From a virus (taxonomy: Duplodnaviria > Caudoviricetes), in IMG/VR virus record IMGVR_UViG_3300035675_000001: a DNA stretch of 64,000 bases; one strand, 5' to 3'. The first letter of the stretch is position 1. Every line of letters begins with the position of its first letter. Positions 18,290-58,629 of the stretch are shown one piece after another. The notes beneath the pieces were generated by a model. The model worked only from the letters and a program-made list of their open reading frames with translations. It had not been told where the DNA came from and ran no database searches. A program made the position numbers and the translations under genes.

Positions 18290-21200
18290 TCAGCTCTTGA
18301 CGCGACCCGTCTCAACCAGGAACGCCCTGGCCTGGTCCGCATCAAATTGAATGTCATTCAGCTTGTAGCCTGACTCGGCCAGGCTCTTGATCTCCTGGTC
18401 GCTGGCCATGAGCAGCCAGCCCGTGGCGTCGAAGCCGCTCGTGGCCGCAACCGTGGGCAGCGCCTTGGTCTCCGCGACCACAATGCCCTCGTTCATGATC
18501 TGGCCGGAGAAGTGGCTCCAATCCAGGACGGCACCGCAGGCACCGCACTCCTGCATATCGAGGTCGTCGGCGTCGCCCGCCTCGATCCCGTTGAAGCCCG
18601 CCTTGAGGTAGCTGAAATCCGTCATCAGGTCGCCCTGGTGCCCACAGGCCGGGCAGCGCACGATGTGCCGGAGGTCGGGCGTCTTCTGGATGTAGATGAG
18701 GCGCAGCTCCGGGACCAGCTCCTTCCAGTCGGCCTCCTCGGACTCGGCAACTTTGTTTACAATTCTGACATCGTTGATCTGATCCCACGGCCACTCCGGG
18801 TGAATCTTCTCACCATAGGAGATGGCGTAATCCATCGGATCATCCAATGGGTAGTATTCTCCCGACAGTTGCTTGTTGAGCGCCTTCCAGTTGGGCCAGC
18901 GCCGGATCACGTCCCAAGGAATTTCCAAGGTCTCGATCCTGGGGCCGTGCTCGCGGGTGTCGTCATCGAACACGAACTGGACTACCGGCAGGATGTCCTG
19001 CGAAGTGGTCAAGTCCTTTCCTCCGATTTCGTCTTCGGCTGACTCTTGAACCTGGTCGGGCGGAATGAAGACTACATCCACCAACCAGTCCCAGTCATCC
19101 TTGTCCACGTCCCGGCGCGTGCGGCGAGCATAGTCGATCACCCTGTCCTGGACATCACCGCCCTCCTCGAAGCTGTTCTCCACTTCGGCCAGGCTGTTCA
19201 CTCCCAGCTCGCTGTAGGGCACCGTCAGCCAAACACTGTAGCCCCGCTCGCCTGCGCCGAAATCGAAACCCAAACGGAACTGCGGCGGCGGGTCGATATT
19301 CACCACGTCCTTGTGGCCGATGTCCTCCTCGCTCTCGTCCACGTCATGGCCATGAACATCGGCGATGGCCCCCTCGTTGTGGACCCGCACCCGGCGCATC
19401 AGCGACTCGATGGCCTCATTCTTCATGTCGTCGTAGTAGCCGCCCGGCTGCTTGAAGTCCTCGGCGCTGTGGTAGGAGCAACCGCCCAACCAGGCTTCGC
19501 CGCTGAACATCTTGCCGTTGGGCGCGGTCCACCGAGCAATAACGTGAGCGGAGCACCAGCCCCACTCGTTGCCGTTCTCGATCTGCTCGCGTGCCCAGGC
19601 CGCATCCTCCGGCATGGGGAAGTGATCCTCCGGCGTTTCGTCTTCCGGCTCAGCAACCAGGACGACCTCGATCTCCTCCGGCGTGGGCGGCTCGATGTAA
19701 TCGCTGGGCGGGGTGACCTGCTTCCAGTCGGCTTCGTCGTCTTCCTCTTTGAGCAGAGCCTCGACCACATCGTTCGGGTCGTAGTCGCCGTGGCCCAGGA
19801 CATAGCCAGGCTCCTCAACGTGCTCGACCTCGTAGTCGTGGTTCAGGTGGTGCCGCTTGAGGAAGTTGAAGCGGTCCTTCATGTCGAACTCCTCGACGTA
19901 AACCTCGTCCGCCTTGTTGAACAAACTCGACGTGTAGGCAAAGTTCAACGCCTTCTCCAGCGTGGGCATGACGTTGGTGTGATACCACTGGTCGTCATCA
20001 GGCTGGAGACCATGCCAGTTCACTCGGAACCAGATGCGTTGCTCATCCGCCACGTCCTTCCAGTCAGGGTCTTCCTCGCTCTCCTGGTGGTAAGCGCCCG
20101 GAGAGTCCAGGCTGTTGACAACCCGCAGCACTTCCACCGAAGGGTTCTTGGCCGAGAAGATCGCCGCCGCTTCCTCCGCATTGCGAGCGTGGACGCCGTA
20201 ATGGCCCTGACCCACCGTGGACTTGTAATAGACGATGAACAGGTTGGGCTTGCCAGAGTGCGCGGCATCCTTCCAATCCAGGTCATCCTCAGACTCGCGC
20301 ACCGGCCCCCACACATTCTCCGGCCAGTCGGCATTGCCGCCAGCAGCCCTGATCTTTCGGATCAGCTCCTCCGTGAACCGCTTCGGGTTGGTGTAGGTGT
20401 CGTGGTAGATCGGGAAATATCCCTCCTGACCACGGCGCTGATACACGACCAGGTGCCACTGACGCTCGCGCACCGTATCCTCGTCGATCAGAGGCTCGGT
20501 GTGCTCGACGGTCATCATGATGTTGGCCTCCGGCTTCACATCATCGCGCCAGGTGAGCATGTGCCACTTGTCGTCCATGCGGAAGCCCAGGCCCGCCATC
20601 CACTCCAGCAGGCTGTCATCGGAAGCCACGTCCTTCCAATCAGGATCGTCCTCGCTCTCATTGGCGATGGGCGTGAGCTTGAACACGAACTCGTGGTCCG
20701 CGCTGCCGCCAGGTATCATCTGGACCGCTACCTGGTTCTTGAAGGCATACTCCGCCGCGAACGTCACGGCTTTCAACGCCTGCTCATCCTTCACGCTCTG
20801 CTCCAGGTTCGGCTCATTGAACTCGCCGTTGAAGCGCACGTCCCAGGTCCGGTCGGTCGCGTCCGGCTCAGACAAGCCGATGTCCAGCCAACCGAAGGTC
20901 TCCAGGGAACTGATGAACGCCTGCGGGTCATACTGCTTGGCGCGACCGCCTGCCACGCGCTCGTCCCCATTGCTCAGGACCGTTTCCTTCCAGTCAGCCT
21001 CATCGCTCTCCTCCAGGCCGTTCTCGTTCGGCTCGTTCGGATTGCGGTAGGTATCCACAATCTTCCAGCCAGAGTTGTTGTCGAGCGGAACCTCGCGGAT
21101 CAGGCTGCCGTCCGGGTTCACGAGCACGATGGCCTCGGTGCCGAACGGACAATCGTTCAGGTCGATGACGCCCTCGTTGATGAAGTCGCCCAGCTTGAAG

Positions 21201-24200
21201 ACCGTAGCCTGGTCGAACTCCTCTATCCAATCTCCTACTTCATCGGAGAAGTAATGCTTCACATACGGAGTGCCTGGCCGATCCATCAGGGTGAACGGGC
21301 ACATGAACTTCACCCACTCGCTCTCGCCCAGGACCAGCTCTTTCCACGAACCCTCGTCGTCCAGGCTCTCGTGCCAGGAATAGACCGGCTTCATGCTGGT
21401 GATGTGGCGTGCGCGGGTGTCCGGCCAGCGGAAGTTCTCGAACCTGGCGCGGGCTTCTTCCTCGCTCGCTGCGGTCAGCGTGATCTCGAACGGCATCCAC
21501 TTGCGGCCACTGCGGGACACGTAGTTGACCTTGAATCCAACCGGCACAGCCAGCCCGGCATCCTTCATGTCGAAGTCATCCTCGGACTCTTTGACCAGGA
21601 AGCTGCGAGCCTGGCTGCCATCAAAGGGCCGGTAGGTCACGAAGCTTGCGTCGTCCTCCAGGTCCAGACCTTGGACCTCCTCCGGCTTCACGCCCGCCAG
21701 CTTGGGCAGGTGTTCAACTCCGGCCTGGAGCGTGTCCATGTGAATGATGCCGTCGTAGCCCTGGGCCTTGGCGGCTTCGACGTAAGCGGGATTGTCAACA
21801 ATCGCATACGTGTCGATCTCCACGCCGTCGAGCAGATACTCCAGAATCTCCATGCGCCTGCTCTCGATGGCCGCTGGGTCTTCCTCCATCTCGGCCAGGT
21901 CGTCGATGGCGTCCTGGAGGTCTCCCCAATCGCTGATGCAGGTGATGTCGTTGGCCGAGCAGGTGAAGTCCACCGAGTATTCCAGCTTGGTCAGGTGATA
22001 CTGGTAGTTGCCGATCAGCTCGCTCAGGTCATCCCACGAGAAGGTGTTGTTGGCGGGCGCATTGCTAAAGTCCCAGCGCAGGCGCTCGATGGCTTGCCAG
22101 AGCGTGGTCTGCGTCCCCAGGTCGCGCAGGTCCAGCGGCTTCTTCATGCTCAGGCGATACTTGCCCACGTTCGCGCCGGGCCGGAACTCCGGCTGGCCAA
22201 ACAGCTCGTCCCTGGTCGCCGCGAACACGCTGGCGATGTGCGGGCTGGTCGTAAAGCTGGGCGTGCTGCGGCCCTGGCGGGTAACGAACTTGCCCGGCTT
22301 GGGCACCTTCTTCATCCCCCGATAGACCGGCAGCGGATTGCCCTCCGGGTCCGTGATGTCGCCCTCGGCCTCGGCCAGAGCTTCCTCGGTCTGCTCCGGC
22401 TCGTTCTTGAAATCCATGATGGTGTTGTCCTGGTCATCCTTGAGCCGAAGCTTGTCGGTCTGACACTTGGCCATCATCCATTCCCACTGAGCGCCGGTGG
22501 GCGTGCCGCCGTCGATCAACATGCTGTCGCCGGGCTGGATCGCCACGCGCATGTAGCCCCGCGCATACATGGCCCGATAGACCTTGCCCTGCATCGTCCA
22601 ATACTCGCGCTCCACAGCGGAGGGCGGCATGGTGATGCCCAGCTTCCTGGCCGCGTAGTCCAGGTGGTTCGCACCCGCATACTCCGGCTGGCCGTTGCGC
22701 GTGAGCCAGATGTTGACGTGGCCGGTGACCTCCTGGATCACAGACTCACCCAGGCCACGACCGCCATAATACCACCAGTCGTAAACCTGCTGCTGCCAGT
22801 CTTCGTATTGGTCCGGGTCTTCGGGCGGCTCGCCAAACTGCTCGATGGCCCGCGCCATCATTTCCTGCTCGTCCTCATCGCGCTTGGCATACTCCGCGTC
22901 GCGCCACTGCTCATACTCTTTGCGCCACTGCTCGCGTTCAGCTTCCCTGGCCGGACGCCCGCGCTCCCACTCCTCCTCGTCTTTCTTGCGCTGCTGCGGG
23001 GACCGGTAACGCTTCCAGGCATCCAGGGCGTAGCTCAAGGATTTCTCCTTGTCGCCGCGTGGATTGTAAAGCGAGGCCCGGCCTGCTCGCGCCCGGAGAG
23101 TGTCGAGGCGCTGGGCCAGAGCTGGGTTCTTGGCTGCCGCGTGCGGGCACAGCCAGGTTTTGCACGCCAGCGGCTTGTCAGCCTTGCAGCCCTGGGGCGA
23201 CCAATGCTCGCAGCCCTTGCAGCAGAGGGTGTCCATATCGACACCGCCGCCATACTTGGCCTGAGCCAGTGGGTCAGAGTAGATGCCCTCGCGGCTCCCC
23301 AGGCAGGTGACATGGCCCGTCTTGGTGTCGATCTGACAGGGCTTGTGTTTGGCCAGCGCACCGGCTGCCTGGCCATAGAGCTTATTGTAAACTTTTTCCA
23401 ACCGCTCGCGGTCAACGGGCTTGGCCTCCTGGATGGCCACGCGCAGGATGGACTCCAGCATCTCCGGCTCCATCTCCGAGTCGCCCAGGTCCACGGTGAT
23501 CTCCACCAGGTCGTGGTTGTGAATCCAGACCTTGGCGTTCTCAGGCAGCGCATTCTGGATCAGCGTGCGCCAGCCGCCGTAGTAGTCGCCCGCCTCGGCC
23601 CCAGGGTAGGGGATGACCGTGTAGATCGAGAGCTGGTCGTGGCCGGTGGTCGGGTTGCGCTTACGCGAGTCGTAGGCATAGACGTGCTGCTTGTCGATCT
23701 GCACCGGGTGCGCGAGGTCCGGCCACGCGGTCGTGCGGGTAGCCAGGTCGCCTTTGACGTAAAACTTGAAGCCCGCTCGCTTGAGCTGATCCATGACCTC
23801 CAACGCGGCCACGCGGTCCAGCTCGCCCAGGTGCGGGCGGACCAGCTCCTTCCAATCCTCGCTGTCCTCCGGCTCCTCCAACGACTCCATCTCGCCGTAA
23901 ACAATTCCGCGCAAAAGCTTCTGGTAGGGCATCCAGTCGATGGCTGCCATCTTCTTGGAATACTTGTCCTCGCATTTGCCCTCCTCCTCGCCGGGCACCA
24001 ACTCGCGGCACTGCTTGGGCCGCTGCTCGTAGCCAAGCTGGCAGCCGCCCGGTCCCTTGAGTTCGCACCGCTCATACTCGCCGCTGCCGGTCATGAAGCT
24101 GCGCCGGGCGCGGGGCCGGACCATCATCACGTCCTCCTCGGCATCCGGGTTCTGGCCGGTGGGGTCGCCATACCAGGAGTCGATCTCGTAGCGGTCGCTG

Positions 24201-24745
24201 TCGAGCGCGGCCTTGATCTTCTCGCGCATGACGTTCACGTCGGGCGCTCCCCAGTCCTCCGGGCTGGTCATGCCTGGATACCAGGAGCAGCACTTGCCGC
24301 CGCACTTGGCACAGAGGCCGGTGTTCTGCGCCTCGTCGATGAACCGCTTGGCCATCTGGCTGTAAGGCTTGCCGATGACATAGCCCTTGCGCTGGAGCTT
24401 GGCCGGGTAGAAGCCTGGCAGCCGATTCGGACAAATGGTATTGACCGCCTGAGCCTGTTGCTCCCAGGTCGGGGTCTCGTTCTCGCCGAAGCCACGCATC
24501 CGGGTCCAGCCGACCCAGCTATGGGCCTTGCTCAGCTTGCCGTTGCGGGTGAAGACCGGGACGATGAAGTGGACGTAGTAGCAGTCGTCGCCGTAGCGGG
24601 AAGGATCGTGGGCGAAGGCGTGCCATTGCTGGAGCTGCGCGAGCTGCGCCGACTCCTCTGGCACCATCGTCAATTCTTTCCAGCCGCCCTCATCTGGCTC
24701 ATCAGCCTCAATGAGTTGTCGGACGATCTTGTCAGCTTCGTTCAC
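18290..24745 (-). CDS. Modular polyprotein 1 (2151 aa): 12 acidic E-S/A...WK[D/E] linkers, ART-like and YkgJ-like modules; putative virion cargo
   Basis: GTG start behind a TAGTTA motif; repeated linkers such as ESEDDPDWKDV, ESEDDLDWKDA and ESEEADWKEL. Confidence 0.85.
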   Translation of the reverse strand: MNEADKIVRQLIEADEPDEGGWKELTMVPEESAQLAQLQQWHAFAHDPSRYGDDCYYVHFIVPVFTRNGKLSKAHSWVGWTRMRGFGENETPTWEQQAQAVNTICPNRLPGFYPAKLQRKGYVIGKPYSQMAKRFIDEAQNTGLCAKCGGKCCSWYPGMTSPEDWGAPDVNVMREKIKAALDSDRYEIDSWYGDPTGQNPDAEEDVMMVRPRARRSFMTGSGEYERCELKGPGGCQLGYEQRPKQCRELVPGEEEGKCEDKYSKKMAAIDWMPYQKLLRGIVYGEMESLEEPEDSEDWKELVRPHLGELDRVAALEVMDQLKRAGFKFYVKGDLATRTTAWPDLAHPVQIDKQHVYAYDSRKRNPTTGHDQLSIYTVIPYPGAEAGDYYGGWRTLIQNALPENAKVWIHNHDLVEITVDLGDSEMEPEMLESILRVAIQEAKPVDRERLEKVYNKLYGQAAGALAKHKPCQIDTKTGHVTCLGSREGIYSDPLAQAKYGGGVDMDTLCCKGCEHWSPQGCKADKPLACKTWLCPHAAAKNPALAQRLDTLRARAGRASLYNPRGDKEKSLSYALDAWKRYRSPQQRKKDEEEWERGRPAREAEREQWRKEYEQWRDAEYAKRDEDEQEMMARAIEQFGEPPEDPDQYEDWQQQVYDWWYYGGRGLGESVIQEVTGHVNIWLTRNGQPEYAGANHLDYAARKLGITMPPSAVEREYWTMQGKVYRAMYARGYMRVAIQPGDSMLIDGGTPTGAQWEWMMAKCQTDKLRLKDDQDNTIMDFKNEPEQTEEALAEAEGDITDPEGNPLPVYRGMKKVPKPGKFVTRQGRSTPSFTTSPHIASVFAATRDELFGQPEFRPGANVGKYRLSMKKPLDLRDLGTQTTLWQAIERLRWDFSNAPANNTFSWDDLSELIGNYQYHLTKLEYSVDFTCSANDITCISDWGDLQDAIDDLAEMEEDPAAIESRRMEILEYLLDGVEIDTYAIVDNPAYVEAAKAQGYDGIIHMDTLQAGVEHLPKLAGVKPEEVQGLDLEDDASFVTYRPFDGSQARSFLVKESEDDFDMKDAGLAVPVGFKVNYVSRSGRKWMPFEITLTAASEEEARARFENFRWPDTRARHITSMKPVYSWHESLDDEGSWKELVLGESEWVKFMCPFTLMDRPGTPYVKHYFSDEVGDWIEEFDQATVFKLGDFINEGVIDLNDCPFGTEAIVLVNPDGSLIREVPLDNNSGWKIVDTYRNPNEPNENGLEESDEADWKETVLSNGDERVAGGRAKQYDPQAFISSLETFGWLDIGLSEPDATDRTWDVRFNGEFNEPNLEQSVKDEQALKAVTFAAEYAFKNQVAVQMIPGGSADHEFVFKLTPIANESEDDPDWKDVASDDSLLEWMAGLGFRMDDKWHMLTWRDDVKPEANIMMTVEHTEPLIDEDTVRERQWHLVVYQRRGQEGYFPIYHDTYTNPKRFTEELIRKIRAAGGNADWPENVWGPVRESEDDLDWKDAAHSGKPNLFIVYYKSTVGQGHYGVHARNAEEAAAIFSAKNPSVEVLRVVNSLDSPGAYHQESEEDPDWKDVADEQRIWFRVNWHGLQPDDDQWYHTNVMPTLEKALNFAYTSSLFNKADEVYVEEFDMKDRFNFLKRHHLNHDYEVEHVEEPGYVLGHGDYDPNDVVEALLKEEDDEADWKQVTPPSDYIEPPTPEEIEVVLVAEPEDETPEDHFPMPEDAAWAREQIENGNEWGWCSAHVIARWTAPNGKMFSGEAWLGGCSYHSAEDFKQPGGYYDDMKNEAIESLMRRVRVHNEGAIADVHGHDVDESEEDIGHKDVVNIDPPPQFRLGFDFGAGERGYSVWLTVPYSELGVNSLAEVENSFEEGGDVQDRVIDYARRTRRDVDKDDWDWLVDVVFIPPDQVQESAEDEIGGKDLTTSQDILPVVQFVFDDDTREHGPRIETLEIPWDVIRRWPNWKALNKQLSGEYYPLDDPMDYAISYGEKIHPEWPWDQINDVRIVNKVAESEEADWKELVPELRLIYIQKTPDLRHIVRCPACGHQGDLMTDFSYLKAGFNGIEAGDADDLDMQECGACGAVLDWSHFSGQIMNEGIVVAETKALPTVAATSGFDATGWLLMASDQEIKSLAESGYKLNDIQFDADQARAFLVETGRVKS

Positions 24746-24933
24746 GCCTTAACTACAGGCGGATCGACCACTGGCTCTGGCTGCTTGTCGTAAAAGTCGC
24801 GGGCGTTAGCGGTCCAGGTGTGATGGCAGATGCCGCACCGCATCTTGAAGTGCTCACCGTTCACCGGCTTGAACTTGGCCGTCTTCTCCGACAACTCGGA
24901 TTCGCACACCGGACATTGGATCGTCTTGCTCAT
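24742..24933 (-). CDS. Small Zn-ribbon protein
   Basis: MSKTIQCPVC...RCGIC. Confidence 0.55.
   Translation of the reverse strand: MSKTIQCPVCESELSEKTAKFKPVNGEHFKMRCGICHHTWTANARDFYDKQPEPVVDPPVVKA
24750..24755 (-). promoter_or_regulatory. Class III motif TAGTTA
   Basis: TAGTTA-AGGC-GTG24745. Confidence 0.7.
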
Positions 24934-30320: not shown

Positions 30321-30706
30321 GCTTCACCTTTCACGGCCTCGGATAGAGGCTTAAATTTGTCAACGACGCCTCCCTCTCGCTCCCGGAACTCAAACAGGGT
30401 GCTATACACTGGATTAAGATGAGCAAAAAGACGGGCGACACTCGAAGTCCACGCCTGGTTCAACTTAAAATCGCTGTCCGCGTCCCGGAGCAAAGTTTCG
30501 TGCCGGAGGTATTCGACGACCGTGTAGGCAGAGTAGTGAGCACGGCGCTCGCCTGCGTTTTTTGCCTGCTGCTCAAAGCTAAGGTATAGCTCCCAGTTTT
30601 TCGTGAGCCAGTCATCGAACCCACGACGAAACTGTCCAGGAATGGCGTGGATAAGCTCTATCGAGACTTCCAGCTTCTCATTCACGGCATCTGGCATTTC
30701 GCTCAC
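30317..30706 (-). CDS. Conserved-looking hypothetical phage protein (lower GC)
   Basis: WLTKN...F...HYSAYTVVEYLR...FKLNQ...ARLF...P...FEFR. Confidence 0.65.
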   Translation of the reverse strand: MSEMPDAVNEKLEVSIELIHAIPGQFRRGFDDWLTKNWELYLSFEQQAKNAGERRAHYSAYTVVEYLRHETLLRDADSDFKLNQAWTSSVARLFAHLNPVYSTLFEFREREGGVVDKFKPLSEAVKGEA

Positions 30707-31032
30707 GATTCACCTTTCACAGCCTGGCGCATCCCGTCCAACTCGACGAGGGCCTTGGCCATTGCGATCTGTTCCTCCTCCGTCCAGGTCCACTCGTGCG
30801 GACTCATAGTGACCCGGTAGGCGCTGCTGGCCGGATGGTTGGTGTGGAAGGGAGTCAGCACTGCTGGCAGCGTGGTCTTGCTGGGCCGGACCTGCCAGCC
30901 GCCGCTCGTGCCGTAGTATTTGCCGCAGAGATCGCGGAGCTGGTTGCAGAGCACGTTGGCTGACGCCTCGCACTCACACACGATGGGCGGCACCAGCTTG
31001 CCCAGTTTGGAATTGTAAACTTCGTGCCTCAT
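30703..31032 (-). CDS. Hypothetical protein
   Basis: MRHEVYNSKLG...; coupled to both neighbours. Confidence 0.55.
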   Translation of the reverse strand: MRHEVYNSKLGKLVPPIVCECEASANVLCNQLRDLCGKYYGTSGGWQVRPSKTTLPAVLTPFHTNHPASSAYRVTMSPHEWTWTEEEQIAMAKALVELDGMRQAVKGES

Positions 31033-31562: not shown

Positions 31563-31569
31563 AACATTC

Positions 31570-31574
31570 AGAAC
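31570..31574 (-). promoter_or_regulatory. Class II upstream motif GTTCT
   Basis: CCGTTCT, 7 nt, then GTG31562. Confidence 0.45.
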
Positions 31575-31717
31575 GGAAGTCGGCGAGCGCCCTTCTGCTG
31601 GACGCCACCTAGCTTCTGAAAAAACTGTTTACACCCACAAGCCTCTCAGCGCAAGCCGAAAAGTAAACATTTTCGCGTAGGATTCGTGGACAACCCATAT
31701 TGACGAGAAATCAATAG

Positions 31718-50600: not shown

Positions 50601-53600
50601 GTTGGCGTGGCCGTCATCAGCATCGCGCCGTAGTCGGTGCGGTGCGTCGTATCATACGGATAGACGGGAGAAGTGTTGTATTGGACCTGGACGTAAGGGT
50701 CAGTGTGCGCCGTGCCCGACGTGTTCCAGGTCTGGTTGTTCTGCCCGCCAAATCCAATGATGATGCGCGTGATGCCGCCGTTGAGCGAGCGGGCGTAGGC
50801 ATGAACGTGCCCGTGGAGGGTCAGGTCCACTCCCCATTCTTTCCAGGGCCAATCCGTGCGCGGGTAATCGCCATACTTGTGGCCACTGTTCCACGCATCC
50901 GAGTTCCAATTCGGATGGTGATACATCACGACCTTCCAGGGAGCTTGGGACCGCCTGATCCAGTCCTTGATCTGCTCAGCCTGGACGCTGTTCATCCGGT
51001 CGAGTCGGACGCGGCCAGTGACGAACGCCACGGTCTTGTCGGCAGTAAAGCTGGCTTGGATCACGTCACCGCCGTAATACCGCTTGCCTTCGTAATCGAC
51101 GTAATTGTTGCCGGGGTTGGCGATGACGCGATAACGCCGGGCCTTGCGTAGCACAACCCACGGCGTGGCAGGGTCGATCCTGGGTTCACCCCACACATAC
51201 ATGAAGGGCACCGTTCCGTTGGCCTTGAAGGTCTGATCGCCGTAGTAGGTGCCTCCGCTGTAGATGACAAACTGTGGGGCATCGTTGATGCCGTCGTCGC
51301 CGTAAGAGTCGCTGGTCTTGACCGTGTAGGTGCCATTGGCATCGACCTGAATCGGGTTGCCCAGGTAGGGCAGTTTGACGTTGGCCCCAATCGGGCTGAA
51401 AGGCGCTTCGCACCAGTTGCCATCCGGCTCAGCAGGCTTGCGATTATTGTCGATGAAGCCTGGGTCTTCCACCGAGTTGTAGCCGTCCGCAACCACGAAC
51501 AGCTCGACGTGGCCGATGCGGACGCGGTAGTAGCGCCCGTTACCTGGCAGGTAATCGTAGTAGTTGGTTTCGAGGCTGTTGTCCCAGCCGTTATCCGGCT
51601 CAGCCCGACGACGCACCGTGGCCCCGTTGTAAGCCAGGAAGTCCGTGACACCGCTGACCCCAACGAAAATCTGGCCGTAGGTGTAAGTGCCGCCGTTGTA
51701 AACCACGTATTGGGGTCCAACCGAAGTTGGGTAAACCCGGTAGGTCTGGTCGTAGCCCTTGATGTTCCCGCTCTGGATGTTGTCCTCGGCAATCGGGGAA
51801 TCGGGGTTCTGGTAATCGTGGTTGCCGTAGCAAACAAAATACTTCTTGGCGTCGATGAAGTCCTGAACGTAAATCTGCGCCGGGTAGAACTCACCAGGCA
51901 AGCCGTCGTAGTATTGGTTGTCCCCGGCATAGAAGTAAGCGTCCGGGTTCCAGCCGCGCACCAGGTTGCTGACCGCTGCCTGGGGAGCGCCGTAAATTCC
52001 ACCATCCGCGCTGACCGCGATATAAGTCGGGTCAGACCAAATCGAGGGCTGCTCGCGCACAACCTCCGTCGAGGTCGGCGCGTAGTTGGCATAGACATTG
52101 ATCGCCGAGCTGAGGCCGAAACCAATCGGGAAGTTGAAAAACCACGTCGAGTTGGAGTAGTCGTAAGTGCCCGTCAAGTTCAGGTCGTAGCTGCCGATTC
52201 GCAGGAAGTCAGAGTTGTAGGGGTCGCTCTCGTGCGTCAGCATCGAATCGACGTTGACGAAATGCGGGTTTTTGACCACCGGAGGAACCGGCGCTCCAGT
52301 CAGCTTCCAGACGTTGAAGAAGGCAAACGGAGTGCCCACCAGAACAGTCCAGTGCATGAGCGTGCTATCCGCAATGATGGGCGGAGAGACATCGAACCAG
52401 TTAAGGAAATCGTAAGTGCCCTTGACCTGGTAGATGTCACCCACGATGGCAGTGAAATCGAAAGCGAACGCCCTGGTGTTGCTGATGCTGAACTGAACCT
52501 CGTAAGGCGGATACGGATAGTCGGCAAGCGTGCCCCAGTATTGCACCTGGCCCGACGTAGCCGAAAAGACCGTGCCGAAAGAGCAGTAGTCGGCATAGCC
52601 CACCTGGTCTTTGATGAGATAGCCGGTGCTGACATTGCGCGGCCTGCGGGTCGCGGGCCGGACCTCCTCCATTGCCTGGATCACCTGGAGTCCAGCGGCG
52701 GTGACCTCGGTGTAGTTGAGCTGCTGGTCGCCCAGGTCAGCCTGCCTGCGATACGTGATGGCAGTCTGCGACGAAAGCGGATCAGTCTCGGTCAGCCAGT
52801 CGCGGACAATGGTTCCTTGGGCGAACGAGCCATTCATCCAGGGCCGGTAGGGCGAAAGCGCCTGCGACCCGAAGTTGGCCAGGGTGCCATTGGCCTGGAG
52901 GTCTTTGTTGGGATCGACGGTGGAGACGCCGAACAACTGCTCCGCCCGGTCGAAGTCGATGGTCAGACTCAGGTCGTAGTAGGAGCTGCGATACTTGATC
53001 GAAGACAACTGCTGCGTCACGGAGAGCACCCGGTGCGTGCCGTTGTCCGTGCCGTTGAGCAGTTCCGTGACCTGGATAGCCGTGTGGTTGAAAGCCGATC
53101 CCGCCGAAATTGCCTCGAAGCGCAGGCCGGTGCCGGACGGGTTGACGTAGGCTTTGGTCTCCGGCCCGCCGCCTGTCAGGATATAGGGCGAGAGCGAAGG
53201 GTCCGGGTCCATCGGCGCGGTGCCGATGATGCTGACCTTGAAGAAGGGGTTGAAGCCGTTGACGACCTGCGTGTAAAACTCGGTGCTGTTGGTGCCGTTG
53301 CGAGCCGTGGCCGTGCCGGTCCAGGTGTAGTAGGGGCCATCCGTCAGGTTCCAGGGATCATAGAAATTGTCACGGACCTGCTTCGGATAGAAGTCAGGAA
53401 CCTCGGAGAAGTCCTGGTCGTTGCGCGGATCGCCGATGTCGTTGGCGATGCGGGGGCTGAGCCGCTGCCAGAGCGGGGTCATCCGCACGTCGTCGTAGCC
53501 CAGGAGCCGCCCCAGGGTCTCAAACGACTGAGCCGTGCCCTTGAACTGGAGCCGGGGGAACCAGGTGCTCAGCAGCCTGCGGGCGTCGGAGTCGGCGTTA

Positions 53601-54064
53601 GCCGGGTCCAAAGCCGCTGACCGGTAGAGCACTGCGCCCACCGTTGCCGCCAGGTATGGGAGCACGTTGGCTTCCACCAGGCGGAGGCTGTCCACACCGT
53701 AGGCCGCGCTGAGAAGGACGTGTTCCTCGTCAAGCTTGAGCTGGCCTGCGACCCATTCCAGCAGCTCAGGCGTGGCGTCCTCCGGGGTATCGTCTTTGAT
53801 TTCAAGAGAGCGACTGTAAACTTTTCCCTTCGGCGACTGGACCTGGGCAATGACGGCGTTGGGCGGTGCGCCGGAGACATCAGACTCCGGCAACCCTTGG
53901 CCAGTGAGGAGAAGTTCGAGCTTTCCAGTGTAAGCGCGGAGGTCGTCAACGCGGTCCTGGTAACCGCCGACGACAGCTTGAATCAAAGCCTGCTCATCGA
54001 GGCTGATTATTCCTTCTGGCAGAAGGCCATAAAGGAAGTCTTCGCTTAAATTCTGCAACGACAT
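47600..54064 (-). CDS. Large baseplate-wedge/tail protein with embedded purple-acid-phosphatase-type metallophosphoesterase and LamG-like domain
   Basis: N-terminal LPYLA...FKGT...LGRLLG; ADGG, GDNQY, GNHD, HHP and GHVH motifs; VSFW...FFSFTYDG...DLRVWN. Confidence 0.75.
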   Translation of the reverse strand: MSLQNLSEDFLYGLLPEGIISLDEQALIQAVVGGYQDRVDDLRAYTGKLELLLTGQGLPESDVSGAPPNAVIAQVQSPKGKVYSRSLEIKDDTPEDATPELLEWVAGQLKLDEEHVLLSAAYGVDSLRLVEANVLPYLAATVGAVLYRSAALDPANADSDARRLLSTWFPRLQFKGTAQSFETLGRLLGYDDVRMTPLWQRLSPRIANDIGDPRNDQDFSEVPDFYPKQVRDNFYDPWNLTDGPYYTWTGTATARNGTNSTEFYTQVVNGFNPFFKVSIIGTAPMDPDPSLSPYILTGGGPETKAYVNPSGTGLRFEAISAGSAFNHTAIQVTELLNGTDNGTHRVLSVTQQLSSIKYRSSYYDLSLTIDFDRAEQLFGVSTVDPNKDLQANGTLANFGSQALSPYRPWMNGSFAQGTIVRDWLTETDPLSSQTAITYRRQADLGDQQLNYTEVTAAGLQVIQAMEEVRPATRRPRNVSTGYLIKDQVGYADYCSFGTVFSATSGQVQYWGTLADYPYPPYEVQFSISNTRAFAFDFTAIVGDIYQVKGTYDFLNWFDVSPPIIADSTLMHWTVLVGTPFAFFNVWKLTGAPVPPVVKNPHFVNVDSMLTHESDPYNSDFLRIGSYDLNLTGTYDYSNSTWFFNFPIGFGLSSAINVYANYAPTSTEVVREQPSIWSDPTYIAVSADGGIYGAPQAAVSNLVRGWNPDAYFYAGDNQYYDGLPGEFYPAQIYVQDFIDAKKYFVCYGNHDYQNPDSPIAEDNIQSGNIKGYDQTYRVYPTSVGPQYVVYNGGTYTYGQIFVGVSGVTDFLAYNGATVRRRAEPDNGWDNSLETNYYDYLPGNGRYYRVRIGHVELFVVADGYNSVEDPGFIDNNRKPAEPDGNWCEAPFSPIGANVKLPYLGNPIQVDANGTYTVKTSDSYGDDGINDAPQFVIYSGGTYYGDQTFKANGTVPFMYVWGEPRIDPATPWVVLRKARRYRVIANPGNNYVDYEGKRYYGGDVIQASFTADKTVAFVTGRVRLDRMNSVQAEQIKDWIRRSQAPWKVVMYHHPNWNSDAWNSGHKYGDYPRTDWPWKEWGVDLTLHGHVHAYARSLNGGITRIIIGFGGQNNQTWNTSGTAHTDPYVQVQYNTSPVYPYDTTHRTDYGAMLMTATPTSLNGMVQTINNVVVDNWTLTKPDCVRAYQERPEDQLDEPMLDLSDEYPWRRDLVNGGELIDRATYNPPTPDVTVTQVGQSIAVFSQTGAQYDVTLNKLGPNPPSFMVNERPLTPYVPGQMAVAYYGTFIPLDHIDPRQRDDLPRRTLSQEATDFYHSANLGVDHSVDDMDWAFEPGWRLYHFGLVQGVLVADPVKFFGRHHRDNLVGWFPFNEHPFDAPPLIDHSVISTDMIPLNATPFGREFDQWRGWHLRVPPGLDFRSDPHSRDLSGPVTVSFWLMVPEGVALPAPYLIQVGSIKITFSNILNVGSVDSDGNTNWVLLSGMASPGWNFFSFTYDGVSAWTCYQATMSTPVAQVDAQTYTDHIWTEDQSVGVVGTTLDYRIHDLRVWNSVKTIEELELVRYHDPNPTACLYRPAYLTCVNDYDRYGVKVLDSGYVMPDLLPSSIETPSEAWVSRYDATGQYQAQSRFKETGIGSGPTLPVRQVLGEQWDTLTAAGTVVVSGWKGQGYGMNDAWMFDNPPPQVMQLLESGSTKYGIIPTWFSTGTTIPWPNAMMATNPCRDRIWVEGDDSYVYEIKVVRSGTQAFGLSAQKLFTQRSDAELMLSGTEGTYAPLLQLVQSAGIGGTHCYGVTSYGTIFPRQLLVVAGTDSTTDNGLWTVLPKGRILGGSVLPSSGTYDIRLASPGVAKVYHPAKLLYSEQPTGGEVVLTDTGYSKQLRVNTSGQVYAAAYAGTVNAPWIFMYGNEEVVTSATQAQAYSNWANPTSFGVSLSLPALNVDGNISFENDETALPGFYRLEIDSGNIGQVDENFDGFKVIITVGDIPFEATLCAGKTGANFQSTDTFDFTLPHVLPGNTLGYSGNSWLLDINWYNALRDERRGTARQLAIYGYRMVRLNTTLYQLKLTATGSSITEVSTTGTDFPATPGGWMAAITSWGTAYSYTHESRIYSSNETFQSRYPMSNVLTATTVERKEDIVMNTPAVISDPPVPTLPVYGPIVIT
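47608..47613 (-). promoter_or_regulatory. Class III motif TAGTTA
   Basis: TAGTTA-TCAC-ATG47603. Confidence 0.65.
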
Positions 54065-54070
54065 CTCGCA

Positions 54071-54880
54071 TTAACTACAGTAGCCGTAGCCGTAGCGATT
54101 CGGAGAAGGCGGAACTTGAAGCGGTTCTCCGTCAGGTGTGAACGGCTTCGTTGTGCGCCCCTGCCAGTTCGCGCCCATCTTGACGGCCTCAGACTCCAGG
54201 TGGAACACGCGGACGGTAGGCAGCAGGTGCCTCTTGATGCGAGGCCAGCGGGCAGCCCACTGAACGTCCATATTCTCGGCGCTGCCTTCGGTGTCCGGGT
54301 AGCGCAGCTCGTGCTGGCGCATGTATTGGCTGTGCCAGAGCTGGAAATAGCCGATGGGGCAATATCCCCACTGCTTGTGGATGAGGTTGGCCCCGATGGG
54401 GTAATCAGCCGGAGTGCTGACCAGGTAGCGGTATCCGAACTGCGGATCGTCGTGCCAGTTTTGCTTGAGCTTGCGCCAGGTGTCGTAGCCAACCACGTTG
54501 CAGCGTTCCGCGCCGTAGATGCAATCCCGCTGGAGGAAGGACTTATCCAGCATGTTGCGAAAGCCCAGCGGCAAAACAACGTCAGCATCCATTTGGAGGA
54601 TGAAACCCTTTTGGCGCAAGGCACCCAGGCCGAAGTTGATCGCCGCGCCCTTGTTGAAGTCATCACCCTTCTCGGTGAAGCAGTCGGTGGGGACGCATTC
54701 GACGGACCACTTTCGGCAGACCTCTTTGGTCACGGTATCCTCGTGGCTGGTGACCACGACCACACGGTCCAGGTGTGAGAGGTTCATTGGCAGACTCTCT
54801 GCCAAGAAGTCCCCGTAGTTGAGGCAGACAATTACTGCTTCCAACCGGCTGTCATAGAATGATTTTGGCTGATCGCTCAT
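54071..54880 (-). CDS. GT2-like glycosyltransferase
   Basis: VIVCLNYGDFL...VVVVT...FNKGAAIN...QMDADVV...GYFQLW...VFHL. Confidence 0.75.
   Translation of the reverse strand: MSDQPKSFYDSRLEAVIVCLNYGDFLAESLPMNLSHLDRVVVVTSHEDTVTKEVCRKWSVECVPTDCFTEKGDDFNKGAAINFGLGALRQKGFILQMDADVVLPLGFRNMLDKSFLQRDCIYGAERCNVVGYDTWRKLKQNWHDDPQFGYRYLVSTPADYPIGANLIHKQWGYCPIGYFQLWHSQYMRQHELRYPDTEGSAENMDVQWAARWPRIKRHLLPTVRVFHLESEAVKMGANWQGRTTKPFTPDGEPLQVPPSPNRYGYGYCS
54072..54077 (-). promoter_or_regulatory. Class III motif TAGTTA
   Basis: TAGTTA, 7 nt, then ATG54064. Confidence 0.6.
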
Positions 54881-54947
54881 ATTGATGTTTGGGCAGAAAA
54901 GCCGGGCCAAGGCAACATGGTATTTTTCGTAAACTTTTCTTACCCTA

Positions 54948-57092
54948 TTAGTCTATCACGTTCGGCTTGCCCAAAAACAGACGGGTTTTTCGGGCATTGT
55001 CGCCTTTTCCGCTGAATAGAACGGCTTTCACAAGGAACCGCATCGCCCCAGGAGAACTGGAATCAAGCAGTGGCTTGCCGATGAGTTCCCGGCAGCAGCC
55101 CTTCTGGATGTAGGCCACGGTCAGGTGAGGTCTGTATTCGGAGTGAGTGTCGGTGTGGGGCAGCTCGTTGACCCTGGCGTTCAGCGCCCGCAGGGCCTCG
55201 CTTTCCACGTCGAACTTGAGCACGTCATACTTGTCGCTCGACTCAAACATCGAGCAGCCCATGATCTGGATTTCAAAAGGCTGGGTCTCCTCGATGATCC
55301 GCAGCAGCTCCCCGGTCGGCTCTGAGTCATGGAGGCCCCACTTCACGGTGACGTGCGGCTCGGTCTCCCGGCCAAAGCCCGGCTCGTCCGCGTAAAGCTC
55401 CTCGTCGAGCACATACATCTGGCCCCAGTGGATCACGGCGTCACCCAGCTCCGGGGGTGCCGGTGCCATCAGGCACGAATACTCGCGCCCTTCGCACAGG
55501 CTCTCCAGTTCCAGGCGCATCTGCTCCTGGTCCTGCTCTGGATACATCCATCGCCGCATCAATTCAGGGTCCGTGGCTTCCACCACGTTGTCCACGCTCA
55601 CCGACTGGTCGCCGCCCGTGTCTTCACTCCACTCCTCCCCGGCCCGGTCTCGCGCCTCGTCGAACAGAGCATAGAACCGATCATTGTCCTCAAAATCGTA
55701 AAGCGCCTCCTCCATGTCCGGGAATTTCTGCTCCAGGCCGCGACGGTAGCTGCGCTTGATCCAGTTGCTCCAGGCTTGTTGGCGCTTCTCCTCCTGGAGC
55801 TGCGTGTGCCCCTCCTCATCGAGCAGGGGGTAATTCTCCCGGCTGTCATAGTCCTTGCGGAACTCCTCGAACGAGTCACCGGGAATCTCCGGGATGTCCT
55901 CCTCGTAAAAGCCCAGCTCTTTGCCGTTGTAAGAGAGCGCCCTGACCTTGAGCCAGGGGTAGTGCTCTTTGAAGTAGTTCAGGTTGGCCTGCTCGACCAG
56001 ACCGCCGCTGAAATCAGAGTGGGAAGCCACGGAGAACCAGCCGTCCCGGTCGTTCTGATTCAGGTTTTCGTTGGCCCAGGCCAGGATCGCTTCCGCGTGT
56101 GAACCCTTGTCGTGCTTGATGAGGTCGGTCAGGTCATCCTCATCCTCAATGCCCTCGAACATGTCCAACTGCTGCTGTGGCGCGGGCTGGTCCCCTAGCT
56201 TGAACTGGAGCTGATTACGGTCGGGATACATGGCCGCGTGGAGCTTCGGCCAGGTGACCAGCTCTACCACACGGTCAACATTGACCGAAGGTTTATGGGA
56301 CGTGTCCGTGTCCCAAAACTCCTCGGCTTCTGAGGCCATCCGGTTGAAAAAGTTGAGACCGTGAGGTCCGAAAAGAAAAGTCTCGATCTCGGCCTGCGGG
56401 TTTTCGGACTTGAACTGACCGCCGAATCTTTCCGCCAACGAGTCCGCAAACTCCTTAGCATAGGTCTCCCTCCAGGCCCTTCCGATGGCTTGCTCGGCGA
56501 CCTCGCTCATGATGTCGTCGTCCAGCACCCGGCCTTGAATTGACTGTTTGACGTAACCCCGGAACGGATTCCAAAGCGGCATCCAATCCAGCTTGTCCGG
56601 TTCCAGGAACACCCGGAAATTTAGCTCGCTGCCATCCTCCTCCAGCCAGGGGAAGTTGCGAACGAAGAACAGGTGGTTGGCGTGCTCCACCGTGCCAGGA
56701 TACGCTTGGCTGTAGGTCGTGCCCGGTATCTCCCACATTTTTCGATCTTCGTCCCAATAGAGGTTTTGACGCGCCCACTCCTCGCGGGACTCATATTCCC
56801 TGCTTCCGGCCAGCTCTTTGACATCCAGGTCCGGGTCGTCCTCCATCGCTTCCCCGACGTAGGGCTTGATCTGATGAAGGTGAACCAGGGCATGACCGTG
56901 CTGCGGGTGGGCAACCCACAGGGTCTTCCTGTCCGCGTTGCGCGAATGGACCGTAGCGACCTTCCAGACACGGCCCCATTCTGCCGTGCCAGGGAGGATG
57001 TCCTGGAGGTAGGCCAGCACCTTGCGGCCCGGCGCATACCAATCGTCGGCCAGGTTCGCCACGTCCTTGAAGTCGTCGAGTTCGTCGTTCAC
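54948..57092 (-). CDS. Modular polyprotein 3 (714 aa): linkers, tandem ~230 aa paralogous modules, C-terminal 2H phosphoesterase (Acb1/gp57B-like)
   Basis: DDFKDV, EAMEDDPDLDVKEL, EGIEDEDDL; HVTV and HLTV 2H motifs. Confidence 0.8.
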   Translation of the reverse strand: MNDELDDFKDVANLADDWYAPGRKVLAYLQDILPGTAEWGRVWKVATVHSRNADRKTLWVAHPQHGHALVHLHQIKPYVGEAMEDDPDLDVKELAGSREYESREEWARQNLYWDEDRKMWEIPGTTYSQAYPGTVEHANHLFFVRNFPWLEEDGSELNFRVFLEPDKLDWMPLWNPFRGYVKQSIQGRVLDDDIMSEVAEQAIGRAWRETYAKEFADSLAERFGGQFKSENPQAEIETFLFGPHGLNFFNRMASEAEEFWDTDTSHKPSVNVDRVVELVTWPKLHAAMYPDRNQLQFKLGDQPAPQQQLDMFEGIEDEDDLTDLIKHDKGSHAEAILAWANENLNQNDRDGWFSVASHSDFSGGLVEQANLNYFKEHYPWLKVRALSYNGKELGFYEEDIPEIPGDSFEEFRKDYDSRENYPLLDEEGHTQLQEEKRQQAWSNWIKRSYRRGLEQKFPDMEEALYDFEDNDRFYALFDEARDRAGEEWSEDTGGDQSVSVDNVVEATDPELMRRWMYPEQDQEQMRLELESLCEGREYSCLMAPAPPELGDAVIHWGQMYVLDEELYADEPGFGRETEPHVTVKWGLHDSEPTGELLRIIEETQPFEIQIMGCSMFESSDKYDVLKFDVESEALRALNARVNELPHTDTHSEYRPHLTVAYIQKGCCRELIGKPLLDSSSPGAMRFLVKAVLFSGKGDNARKTRLFLGKPNVID

Positions 57093-57514
57093 GGCCAGTT
57101 CGTTCCTTCCGTTCCGTTGACCACGATGGTCTGCGAATCATTCTGCCAGTAGGGCGGACGATTGGCAGTGCCCCAAATCTCGATGTATTTCTGCCGCCAG
57201 GTGCCGATGTCGTTCGTCCCGATGTAAATGTAAACCGAGAAGCTGTCCGGCCCGCCGACATCCACGGAGAAGCGTCCCCAAGGATACTTGTTCATCAGCC
57301 ACTCCACCCGATTCAAGTCGGCCACGCCCTGGCCGGGGAAGACATTGCAGTCCCCGTTGCCCAGCTCACGGTCGATGGGGGCCTGCTGGAGCTGGGCGTT
57401 GATGAGCCAACTGCCCCGCGTGGCCAGATACATGATCTGCTCATAGCTGAGCATGGGCCGATGCTGGGCGTTGATCTGCCAGACGTTGTTGTAGATGGCG
57501 ATTTTCGGGATCAT
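57089..57514 (-). CDS. Hypothetical protein
   Basis: 141 aa, ATGA-coupled between polyproteins 4 and 3. Confidence 0.65.
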   Translation of the reverse strand: MIPKIAIYNNVWQINAQHRPMLSYEQIMYLATRGSWLINAQLQQAPIDRELGNGDCNVFPGQGVADLNRVEWLMNKYPWGRFSVDVGGPDSFSVYIYIGTNDIGTWRQKYIEIWGTANRPPYWQNDSQTIVVNGTEGTNWP

Positions 57515-58629
57515 GCTTGTCCTTGCCGCGCTCGGTATTCCAGCTCCCGGTTGAACATGTTGCCGCCCTCCAGGTAACCCTCGCGGTCCAGGATCGCCAA
57601 GATTTCGCGTTCATTGCCGGTCGTCCGGCTCATCTCCATCTCATCGAAGGTCGTCCGCAATTCCCACAGGTCGTCATCGAGCTGCGTGACCAGCACGTTC
57701 ATGTGCGGGTTGATCGGGAAGACGTAATGATGGCTGCCCGCTTCACGCCAGACACCTTTGGCCAGCTCAGCCTGGATGAGCGGACCCAAGCCCAGGTTGC
57801 CGCCCAGCAGCTCCTTGGTGCTCTCGTCGTCATCATCCAGGGATTCATTCCAGACGCCGGTGCCGTAGTCCGCAAGCTGTTCGCGCCACTCCCTGAAATC
57901 CTTGCGCTTAATCATGGACTTGGCGTTCTCCAGGCTGTTGGCGCTCTGCCGGTGGAGCATGAGGCCCTGCGGGGTCTGCTCGGTTTTGACGAACTCGTAG
58001 ATCACATACTGGGTCCAGGTGGACATCTCCCCGAAGTGGCCGTGAGTGCGCCGGACGTTTTTGAGGACCAGGTAGTTCCCGTATTTGTAAATCTTCTTGG
58101 TGCCGAACCACTTGTTGTTCTTCCGGCTGAAAAACTCCGGCTCCGCAGCCTTCATGTCCTCAAGGCTGGCCACAGGTTCGCCGCCCCAGGCGACCTCCTT
58201 CACGTCGAAATCGCCATCGCTCTCCTGGAGTGCCCGATTCCGGTAATCGACCGTGCCCGATGGCTCTCCGTTAACGATTAAAGGTGCCCCATAGAGGTTC
58301 CGCCAGCTCCTCAAGGCCCACTTTAGCACCCCAAAGCTGGCAAAGCGGCCCAACCAATACCAGTTGTTGGTGAAATCAACCCGAATGCCGCCCTCTCCCT
58401 TGTCAAGCTGTTGAATACGAATCAGTTTGACCGGCATCCTGGAAACGTATTCCCGGATTCCCCGCAGGTTCCGGCTTTTCCGCATCGGATGACCGTTTTC
58501 ATCGTAGAGGTAGTGGACCTCTCCGTAGGTCTCAGGCCAGGCCGTATCCCGGAAGGTGTGGGCCGCATCCTTCCAGGAAGCCTCGTCGTCATCTGCCTCA
58601 AGCAGTTGCCTGATGATTTGGTCGATCAC
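57511..58629 (-). CDS. Modular polyprotein 4 (372 aa, three linker-delimited modules)
   Basis: MIDQIIRQLLE-ADDDEASWKDA; LQE-SDGDFDVKEV; WNE-SLDDDDESTKEL. Confidence 0.8.
   Translation of the reverse strand: MIDQIIRQLLEADDDEASWKDAAHTFRDTAWPETYGEVHYLYDENGHPMRKSRNLRGIREYVSRMPVKLIRIQQLDKGEGGIRVDFTNNWYWLGRFASFGVLKWALRSWRNLYGAPLIVNGEPSGTVDYRNRALQESDGDFDVKEVAWGGEPVASLEDMKAAEPEFFSRKNNKWFGTKKIYKYGNYLVLKNVRRTHGHFGEMSTWTQYVIYEFVKTEQTPQGLMLHRQSANSLENAKSMIKRKDFREWREQLADYGTGVWNESLDDDDESTKELLGGNLGLGPLIQAELAKGVWREAGSHHYVFPINPHMNVLVTQLDDDLWELRTTFDEMEMSRTTGNEREILAILDREGYLEGGNMFNRELEYRARQGQA

Follow-up and report, generated by a model that had tools for sequence, protein, structure and literature searches.

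Cut-site-like acidic linkers join unrelated modules in probable head-cargo polyproteins of an uncultured jumbo phage

IMG/VR virus record IMGVR_UViG_3300035675_000001 (Duplodnaviria; Caudoviricetes) is a 109,625-bp contig of an uncultured jumbo phage from wetland metagenomes, with a GC content of 61% and a completeness, according to CheckV, of 62%; the same DNA is found in wetland metagenomes of two studies. Within the window analysed here, a stretch of 64,000 nucleotides corresponding to the reverse strand of positions 18555–82554 of that record, five open reading frames (ORFs), all on the minus strand, encode proteins in which a short acidic linker of the form [V/L/I]-x-E-[S/A]-(acidic run)-[W/F/V/M/G]-K-[D/E]-[V/L/A] recurs between modules. 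These ORFs, first pointed out in a reading of the letters without database searches (the sequence-only reading), are present as described, at 18290–24745 (P0001, 2151 aa), 35795–41011 (P0002, 1738 aa), 41495–42034 (P0003, 179 aa), 54948–57092 (P0004, 714 aa) and 57511–58629 (P0005, 372 aa from its GTG start), and their third-position GC content (0.74–0.84) is typical of coding sequence here. Coordinates are window positions unless given as contig positions. We located 26 clear and six variant linkers in the five ORFs, in agreement with the 12, 12, 1, 3 and 3 copies counted earlier.

The longest chain, P0001, carries an N-terminal leader, 12 clear linkers and one variant, and comprises 12 modules. 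Its first tag (LIE/ADEPDEGGWKEL, 24671–24715; a slash is set after the Glu throughout) stands behind a leader of 13 residues and is followed by linker 2 (EME/SLEEPEDSEDWKEL, 23843–23893), a variant junction without the Lys part (LAE/AEGDITDPEG, 22340–22378), and linkers 3 (VKE/SEDDFDMKDA, 21557–21595), 4 (WHE/SLDDEGSWKEL, 21335–21376), 5 (LEE/SDEADWKET, 20981–21031), 6 (ANE/SEDDPDWKDV, 20627–20665) and 7 (VRE/SEDDLDWKDA, 20264–20302). The next four fall in a region for which a structure was modelled: linkers 8 (HQE/SEEDPDWKDV, 20051–20089; pLDDT <50), 9 (LKE/EDDEADWKQV, 19715–19768; coil), 10 (VDE/SEEDIGHKDV, 19304–19342; pLDDT 40–50) and 11 (VQE/SAEDEIGGKDL, 19010–19051; pLDDT <50). Linker 12 (VAE/SEEADWKEL) lies at 18716–18751.

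P0002 has eight clear and four variant linkers and about 12 modules, including a NUDIX module. Its N-terminal tag (ILE/QDFDMKEV, 40970–41002) is followed by a variant linker (VVE/ASEADFADEKEV, 40427–40471), by QEE/SLEDDDISGKEL (39884–39931), IEE/SLEDDDDDIGKPV (39494–39544) and VAE/SLADDDDLGGKDT (39158–39205), by a variant lacking the Lys part (VAE/ALADDDEDD..., 38837–38881), by IIE/SDEEADWKDV (38498–38536) and VAE/AVEDDEGATWKDV (38183–38230), by a variant directly ahead of the NUDIX module (LIE/NSEEGDDKSRV, 37343–37384), and by TQE/GEDEVDWKDA (36917–36955), VEE/SDEDIGWKEV (36596–36637) and VYE/AAEDDIDWKDA (36221–36262). P0003, the first gene of the operon that ends in P0002, is a single module behind a 14-residue leader and one tag (LLE/AEEDDIDFKEV, 41960–42001). 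P0004 starts directly with a tag, without a leader (VNDELDDFKDV, 57060–57092), and contains one clear internal linker (VGE/AMEDDPDLDVKEL, 56811–56858), one variant (GIE/DEDDLTDLIKHD, 56109–56153) and a C-terminal 2H phosphoesterase module. P0005 consists of an 11-residue leader and three tags (LLE/ADDDEASWKDA, 58564–58605; LQE/SDGDFDVKEV, 58192–58230; WNE/SLDDDDESTKEL, 57808–57852); its start is likely the GTG at 58629, which follows the hexamer TAGTTA by four bases, whereas a start further upstream would make the frame overlap the preceding gene.

Counted over all proteins of the contig, the strict motif has 31 copies, every one in the coding frame, whereas 200 within-protein shuffles average 0.43 (maximum 3). 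A loose six-frame scan of the window gave matches on the minus strand only, and these, apart from two chance ones (40600 and 45212–45218), are the motif copies within the five ORFs. A scan of the whole contig, in line with a check proposed in the sequence-only reading, showed that the feature is larger than the window: some 14 further copies lie in about five genes beyond it, at contig positions 82415–83884, 88625–92641 (with a second NUDIX domain), 93271–95019, about 99200–99800 and 102527–103960. Linker Ser is written with AGC as well as TCN codons, and there is synonymous variation in the codons for Asp, Glu and Lys; selection therefore acts on the peptide, and the repeat is no recent duplication of DNA. 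A recent DNA repeat or recombination hotspot was rejected, as the copies differ in codons and only the 12-mer GACTGGAAGGAC recurs, four times.

Relatives of the phage were found through the portal gene: G006 (portal identity 92%, contig of 70 kb), G001 (85%, 238 kb, 96% complete), G005 (81%, 102 kb), G002 (61%, 203 kb) and G003 (54%, 172 kb). G001 and at least six polyproteins from independent contigs keep the motif, each lineage with a flavour of its own. An exact degenerate DNA pattern for E-S-E-D-D-x-D-W-K-D matched nothing in IMG/VR beyond the phage's own genome, which indicates that the exact wording of the linker is specific to its lineage. In principle, the repeat might have no specific function and simply reflect chance or the composition of acidic, high-GC coding sequence, given that the polyproteins are acidic overall and Asp/Glu-rich stretches are common. 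Such a reading does not account for 31 copies where shuffling yields 0.43, for conservation across independent contigs, or for a P3, P1, P1′ and Lys that stay fixed while codons vary; the shuffle counts and the position-specific residue pattern effectively refute it, and we give it next to no credence.

To describe the anatomy of the site, copies were aligned on the Glu (P1) that precedes Ser, Ala, Gly or Thr, and residue preferences were tested at positions outside this anchor. P3 is hydrophobic at 29 of 34 sites on this contig (p=8e-12), at 15 of 22 in G001 (p=2e-4) and at 23 of 30 in six polyproteins of other contigs (p=1e-8). The 29 residues are Val (15), Leu (7), Ile (3), Trp (2) and Met (2), and small residues are rare at this position; the enrichment is confined to P3, with P2, P4, P5 and P6 at background. 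P1′ is Ser or Ala, P2′–P6′ are Asp or Glu, and the closing piece is an aromatic or aliphatic residue followed by Lys, Asp/Glu and a hydrophobic residue. Judged by its residues, the first half of the motif follows the hydrophobic-x-Glu rule by which T4 gp21 cuts; for this prohead protease, an explicit L/I-x-E consensus was reportedly established by Black and colleagues. The description of the linker as cleavable-looking was apt, in that a P1 Glu, a hydrophobic preference at P3 only and a P1′ Ser or Ala fit what the gp21 family requires. Both T4 gp21 and the homologous enzymes of giant phages cleave C-terminal to Glu at short motifs, and the head protease of SPN3US recognizes an AXE motif with Ser preferred at P1′ (PMC5694885, PMC9026906, PMC10052503).

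The same anatomy bears on the explanation that we rank as the main rival to cleavage, namely that the chains stay intact. They would then be polyvalent proteins, beads on a string that may or may not be packaged, in which the acidic peptide serves as a flexible, soluble spacer combined with an aromatic-Lys-Asp-hydrophobic motif for binding a scaffold, portal or chaperone. The acidic-Lys half of the motif is conserved at least as strongly as the Glu site, which proteolysis leaves unexplained; a spacer, however, has no need of a position-specific hydrophobic P3, a P1 Glu or a P1′ Ser or Ala. Polyvalent phage proteins with 2–15 domains are known, and the N4 virion RNA polymerase is packaged uncut (PMC5512222). 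Weighing these points with those from the leaders and modules below, we regard intact chains as rather unlikely.

The motif is a tag as well as a linker. N-terminal tags sit behind amphipathic leaders of 10–14 residues (for example DKIVRQLIE, ELILNGLLE or DQIIRQLLE before the tag). Leaders of 11–14 residues ending in L-[LI]-E or V-L-E are found in P0001, P0003, P0005 and contig genes 88625 and 93271; the leader of P0002 has only six residues, and P0004 has none. By analogy, these leaders resemble the capsid-targeting sequences (CTSs) of T4. Leader and motif also head proteins of a single module (P0003, and the G001 genes at 120924, 150478 and 154248), where a spacer between domains would be pointless. 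Among homologues of individual modules, the same domain families occur both with and without a leader: some homologues in other uncultured phages begin with x-x-L-V-x-x-L-L-E followed by an acidic stretch and P-K-x-F, and most do not, which suggests that the leader is portable and not part of the fold. No tag was found in the replication, tail, baseplate or portal genes of the contig. CTS-like leaders are found across the clade, those of G002 and G003 often behind TAGTTA; the acidic-Lys extension and chains with multiple linkers are confined to a sub-clade comprising this phage, G001 and the contigs that encode P0006, P0007, P0024, P0060, P0077 and P0157.

The modules between the linkers behave as cassettes. 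An all-against-all BLASTP comparison of 45 modules gave only two weak pairs, consistent with the earlier statement that they are mutually unrelated; their lengths span 71–762 aa, a wider range than the 50–250 aa first assigned to them. The expectation that modules fold independently and that linkers fall outside the folds is borne out by an AlphaFold2 model of P0001:1555–1915, in which module m9 reaches a pLDDT of 98 and four linkers are coil (pLDDT about 40–60). Linkers predicted as coil between compact domains are also what intact chains would display. Module m9 (residues ~1684–1797; 19355–19696, minus strand) is a self-contained domain of about 113 aa that superposes on a 113-residue stand-alone phage protein (TM 0.80), and its conserved residues are G-N-x-W-[AG]-W-C, L-G-G-C-S-Y and P-G-G-Y-Y-D-D-M, in that order. 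It matches no Pfam family and no solved structure, and AlphaFold DB clusters give only unnamed phage proteins; the three-module model as a whole has no significant match in the PDB. A repeated weak match to SPO1 Acb4 (probability up to 0.77, TM 0.38) was not taken as evidence.

An exhaustive HMMER search with P0001:1050–2151 returned 1104 proteins. Among the best-scoring 150, which were fetched, more than 130 match m9 and others match m4, m8 and m12; most are stand-alone proteins of 90–190 residues, and the m9 family members are mostly viral stand-alone proteins of 100–160 aa. Six long relatives (P0006, P0007, P0024, P0060, P0077 and P0157), from metagenome contigs of up to 243 kb, contain 6–9 linkers each, with wording specific to the lineage (ESEDWDIKDV, EAEEDWKELIxP, ESEDEPVDAKAFLL). 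P0015, P0029, P0036, P0043 and P0076 are multidomain proteins that include an m9 domain without any such linker, so that fusion in other lineages evidently does without it, a further point against a mere spacer. Compared with P0001, its orthologue P0006 has the shared modules in permuted order (m3 and m4 swapped, m11 and m12 swapped) and lacks m5–m7 and m9, and syntenic G001 genes share only a minority of modules. Contigs from four wetland runs aligned to P0001 carry the same sequence in two studies, with no module gain or loss seen among them; no RNA runs containing the region were found.

Recognizable cargo on the contig comprises two NUDIX hydrolases, a 2H phosphoesterase, Cys-rich metal-binding domains and a zinc ribbon. 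The NUDIX hydrolase module of P0002 (residues 1223–1340; 36992–37345, minus strand) matches PF00293 with E=9e-19, and the module of P0004 that belongs to the 2H phosphoesterase (2′-5′ RNA ligase) superfamily (residues 576–661; 55110–55367, minus strand) matches PF13563 with E=3e-9; P0001 has two Cys-rich modules with a weak match to a CxxCxxCC metal-binding Pfam family. One PHROG portal family includes a fused NUDIX domain, which shows that an enzyme of this type can reside in capsids. The related polyprotein P0007 contains an ART-PolyVal-like module (E=2e-6, under the cut-off, and a lead only); this module and the NUDIX modules are domains typical of polyvalent proteins, as expected if the chains remain whole. 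For the N-terminal module of contig gene 82415, a likeness to ART-PolyVal/AcrIF11 appeared only in language-model features, with no Pfam match and a single-sequence fold that is unusable (pLDDT 44). An ADP-ribosyltransferase in P0001:791–1056, guessed from motifs by eye, was discarded, having no homologue in 5.8 billion proteins and no Pfam match. It is plausible that the modules are injected effectors.

Several of these genes share a sequence ahead of the start codon. As the sequence-only reading had observed, the GTG codons at 24745, 42034 and 58629 (P0001, P0003 and P0005) each follow TAGTTA by four bases, the hexamers lying on the minus strand at 24750–24755, 42039–42044 and 58634–58639. 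P0002 and P0004 stand downstream in the operons of P0003 and P0005, respectively, joined by overlapping stop and start codons, the gene orders being P0003, a cytidylyltransferase-like gene and P0002, and P0005, a 141-aa gene and P0004. TAGTTA at the same four-base spacing also precedes contig gene 82415, a gene of 2154 residues and a gene of 1397 residues with a glycosidase domain; in front of the portal gene and a tail-fibre-like gene the distance to the start is seven bases, versus four in cargo genes. The motif is kept in G001–G003, and across four genomes TAGTTA-led genes show a modest link with N-terminal leaders (odds ratio 3.4, p=0.002, by a crude regular expression). TAGTTA had been taken for a motif of structural genes. 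Its position before the portal and tail-fibre-like genes agrees with this, but two metabolic genes that carry no tag, the cytidylyltransferase-like gene and an unannotated gene of 279 aa (54071–54910), are located within or next to these operons, and TAGTTA therefore marks a temporal or regulatory class and not virion proteins as such.

The contig encodes a T4-type portal (Portal_T4, E=4e-17), a gp25-like baseplate wedge, tail-fibre-like proteins, helicases, a topoisomerase, a primase and an SbcD-like protein. The portal is at best 25% identical to those of known phages, 12 kb of the window matched none of 50,697 phage records by megablast in a search for cultured relatives, and P0001:1200–2151 and m9 found no match in the same records by tblastn; with no cultured phage close enough, no cultured virion proteome can be used for comparison. 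Head genes were instead traced in the uncultured relatives. A Peptidase_S77 gene directly precedes a Gp23-type capsid gene in G001, G002, G003 and G005, and an S77 protease is also present in G006, where the search covered the protease only. The product in the relatives is a fusion of about 540 residues, consisting of the protease domain and a long, helical, scaffold-like tail. The G001 protease aligns to the crystal structure of T4 gp21 (5JBL, E=6e-6), with conserved blocks containing His (EHP), Ser (SSRG) and Asp (D-x-V) that by eye correspond to the catalytic triad named in PMC5694885. At residues 6–8 the relatives' proteases have an L-x-E-type start (Y-L-A-E, L-L-E or L-Y-E) that recalls the self-cleavage site of T4 gp21, LIE-9 (PMC9026906, PMC9958956), and in G001 and G002 a leader of the kind found in the cargo genes also opens the small gene just ahead of the protease gene. 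As a separate observation, the gp23-type capsid proteins of G001 (235901–237355), G002 (19041–20498) and G003 (30657–32111) share a conserved [T/V/I]-L-E-W-G at residues ~25–29, a candidate removal site for a capsid propeptide of about 27 residues, far shorter than the 65 of T4.

The identity of this protease also bears on whether the chains might be true polyproteins that are cut in the cytoplasm by a host or other phage protease and never encapsidated, the gain being equimolar expression of small accessory proteins from a single promoter, as in the polyproteins of RNA viruses. A regular grammar, independent modules and the untagged metabolic genes in or beside the same operons would all suit such a scheme. 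Against it, no other protease domain appears in the polyproteins or among the 25 best-represented Pfam/PHROG families of contig genes, the N-terminal leaders resemble CTSs, and the site fits the only protease family known from this lineage, whose T4 member is active only within the assembled prohead (PMC9958956). We consider cytoplasmic processing improbable.

The five genes, and about five more on the contig, probably encode cargo proteins of the phage head. In the scheme that we favour, with somewhat better than even confidence, the leaders target the chains to the prohead core, a gp21-type protease cuts after the Glu of each linker, and the modules stay as capsid cargo. The short amphipathic leader (DKIVRQLIE, DQIIRQLLE) would act like a T4 CTS and carry the entire chain into the prohead's scaffold core. 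The gp21-family (MEROPS S77) prohead protease, once active, would then cut after Glu at every [V/L/I]-x-E-[S/A] site, removing the leader and splitting the string into modules of 70–760 residues, each of which would start with the acidic run and the aromatic-Lys-Asp/Glu-hydrophobic piece. The freed modules would remain in the capsid and enter the host with the DNA. We infer targeting, cleavage, capsid retention and injection alike from sequence and structure comparisons, so that the proposal of packaged, head-protease-processed polyproteins made in the sequence-only reading is supported in part.

Several observations weigh against this scheme. No Peptidase_S77 gene and no capsid gene was found on the contig itself, which is 62% complete; truncation is the likely reason, given that the contig begins 12.5 kb before the portal while the protease of G006 lies about 50 kb from its portal. 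G002 and G003 encode the same protease, with few tags and no multi-linker proteins, so the enzyme does not depend on the motif, which is an elaboration. The hydrophobic-x-Glu rule is a loose one, and for the equally conserved acidic-Lys half we know of no counterpart in T4 sites. The untagged genes in and beside the TAGTTA operons sit awkwardly with a dedicated cargo class, and most modules have no function recognizable in Pfam or PHROGs, which makes the label 'effector' a conjecture. The sequence-only reading had further proposed a role in scaffold binding or ejection for the acidic-WK(D/E) piece that each module would keep; beyond the conservation of the piece, this found no support. The net charges of the scaffold in four relatives (+13, +5, +7 and −17) do not track the presence of tags, and binding of acidic tags to a basic scaffold was accordingly set aside. 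Our best guess is that the acidic-Lys half is either an extended prime-side recognition element of the protease or a site for binding a core component.

A broader version of the proposal extends to the clade: these uncultured jumbo phages would load and then dice strings of interchangeable effector domains, using a gp21-type cut site together with a retained acidic-aromatic-Lys tag that acts as a second signal (in core binding or ordered ejection, for instance), so that one leader carries up to a dozen cargo proteins at fixed stoichiometry and new modules can be added at any linker. We put this forward tentatively, with less than even confidence.

The individual parts of the proposal (CTSs, Glu-specific prohead proteases, multiple cuts in giant-phage head proteins, and polyvalent proteins) are known. 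T4 offers the closest likeness: its internal proteins IPI–III and Alt likewise have a short N-terminal amphipathic leader ending in hydrophobic-x-Glu, its head gene set (portal gp20, capsid gp23) is of the type seen here, and it uses the same protease family, S77, as the nearest relatives of this phage; the T4 internal proteins and the presumed cargo here are both diverse and fast-evolving. In T4, however, each protein has one signal, at the N-terminus only, whereas here the site recurs up to 13 times within one chain between unrelated domains and is always followed by the acidic-aromatic-Lys piece, which T4 sites to our knowledge lack. T4 internal proteins are basic and the modules here acidic. 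Among the packaged T4 proteins is an enzyme, the ADP-ribosyltransferase Alt, which is trimmed as well (PMC9958956).

Ejection and inner-body proteins of phiKZ, 201phi2-1 and SPN3US (protease gp175/gp245, MEROPS S80) are likewise cut after Glu at a three-residue motif, several cuts per protein are possible, and these phages package and eject many head proteins. At P3 their sites have Ser, Ala or Gly (AXE in SPN3US), in contrast to the Val, Leu or Ile found here, and the extra cuts fragment long, discarded propeptides, release no series of folded domains and involve no repeated linker peptide; the protease of the present lineage matches S77 and not the phiKZ type.

Polyvalent proteins (Iyer et al. 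2017, PMC5512222) similarly unite many unrelated conflict-type domains in one polypeptide, shuffle rapidly and are predicted to be packaged and injected. P0001, with 12 modules, and P0002, with about 12, fall within the range of 2–15 unrelated domains given for that class, and the modules of the polyproteins include NUDIX and 2H phosphoesterase domains. For polyvalent proteins, processing by embedded zincin-like peptidase domains has been proposed, and the word 'linker' does not occur in the main text of that paper (PMC5512222); by contrast, Pfam and PHROG searches found no peptidase domain of any kind, zincin-like or other, in the nine linker-bearing proteins examined here. In RNA viruses and retroviruses, too, a viral protease recognizes a short recurring site and divides a single translation product into independent proteins; those proteins serve small genomes as their main replication and structural components, and cutting takes place in the cytoplasm or the budding particle, whereas here, if the proposal holds, accessory cargo of a double-stranded DNA phage with a genome well above 100 kb (203–238 kb in relatives) would be cut inside the prohead. 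In the literature searched, we found no description of the combination seen here, a cut-plus-tag peptide present up to 13 times per chain and joining unrelated, shuffled domains across a clade.

Several neighbouring features merit record. The cytidylyltransferase-like gene between P0003 and P0002 (41008–41505, minus strand; 165 aa) is untagged and has an HxGH-type motif, and a second CTP_transf_like gene lies at contig 95413–96570. The TAGTTA-led protein of 2154 aa (47600–54064, minus strand) has no linkers, contains a calcineurin-like phosphoesterase domain (E=2e-11) and weakly matches the P2 gpI tail protein; it is possibly a giant baseplate or tail protein. The 261-aa protein encoded directly after P0001 (17501–18286, minus strand) looks like a radical SAM enzyme, with a C-x3-C-x2-C motif (CPVACPYC) close to the N-terminus and additional clusters of Cys. 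Contig-wide, three motifs stand close to start codons: G-TAGTTA (mostly four, sometimes seven bases before ATG or GTG), CGTTCTA (6–8 bases) and TTGTAAACA (0–4 bases), with sites in the window that include 24750–24755, 42039–42044, 58634–58639 and the sequence before 54064. Inspection by eye shows no Shine-Dalgarno sequence near these starts, and the three motifs may be classes of promoter or start signal for leaderless mRNAs. The contig also encodes a protein with a sigma-54 interaction domain, an AAA lid and a Fis-type helix-turn-helix (E=3e-58), a phage-borne bacterial enhancer-binding protein, and a Cpn10 (GroES-like) protein. Acb2/Tad1 hairpin domains, known from nucleotide sponges that counter CBASS and Thoeris, are encoded at 3003–3323 (plus strand) and at contig 96686–97078 (E=1e-20 and 2e-5, the second under the family cut-off), in untagged genes outside the polyprotein operons.

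Were cleavage and packaging to hold true, these phages would deliver dozens of different proteins with their DNA at the cost of one targeting signal per string, and the cargo set could be changed by swapping cassettes at a standard junction. The motif would then provide a sequence handle for injected proteins in metagenomic phage genomes, which are at present hard to recognize, and would point to a large set of candidate factors of unknown fold that act early, anti-defence factors possibly among them, as well as to a natural design for loading phage capsids with multiple cargoes. If the chains are not cut, the linker keeps its interest as a conserved peptide for which the literature searched offers no match; it marks a distinct class of genes in a widespread clade of uncultured phages, and several genes of that class follow TAGTTA, the motif also seen ahead of virion genes.

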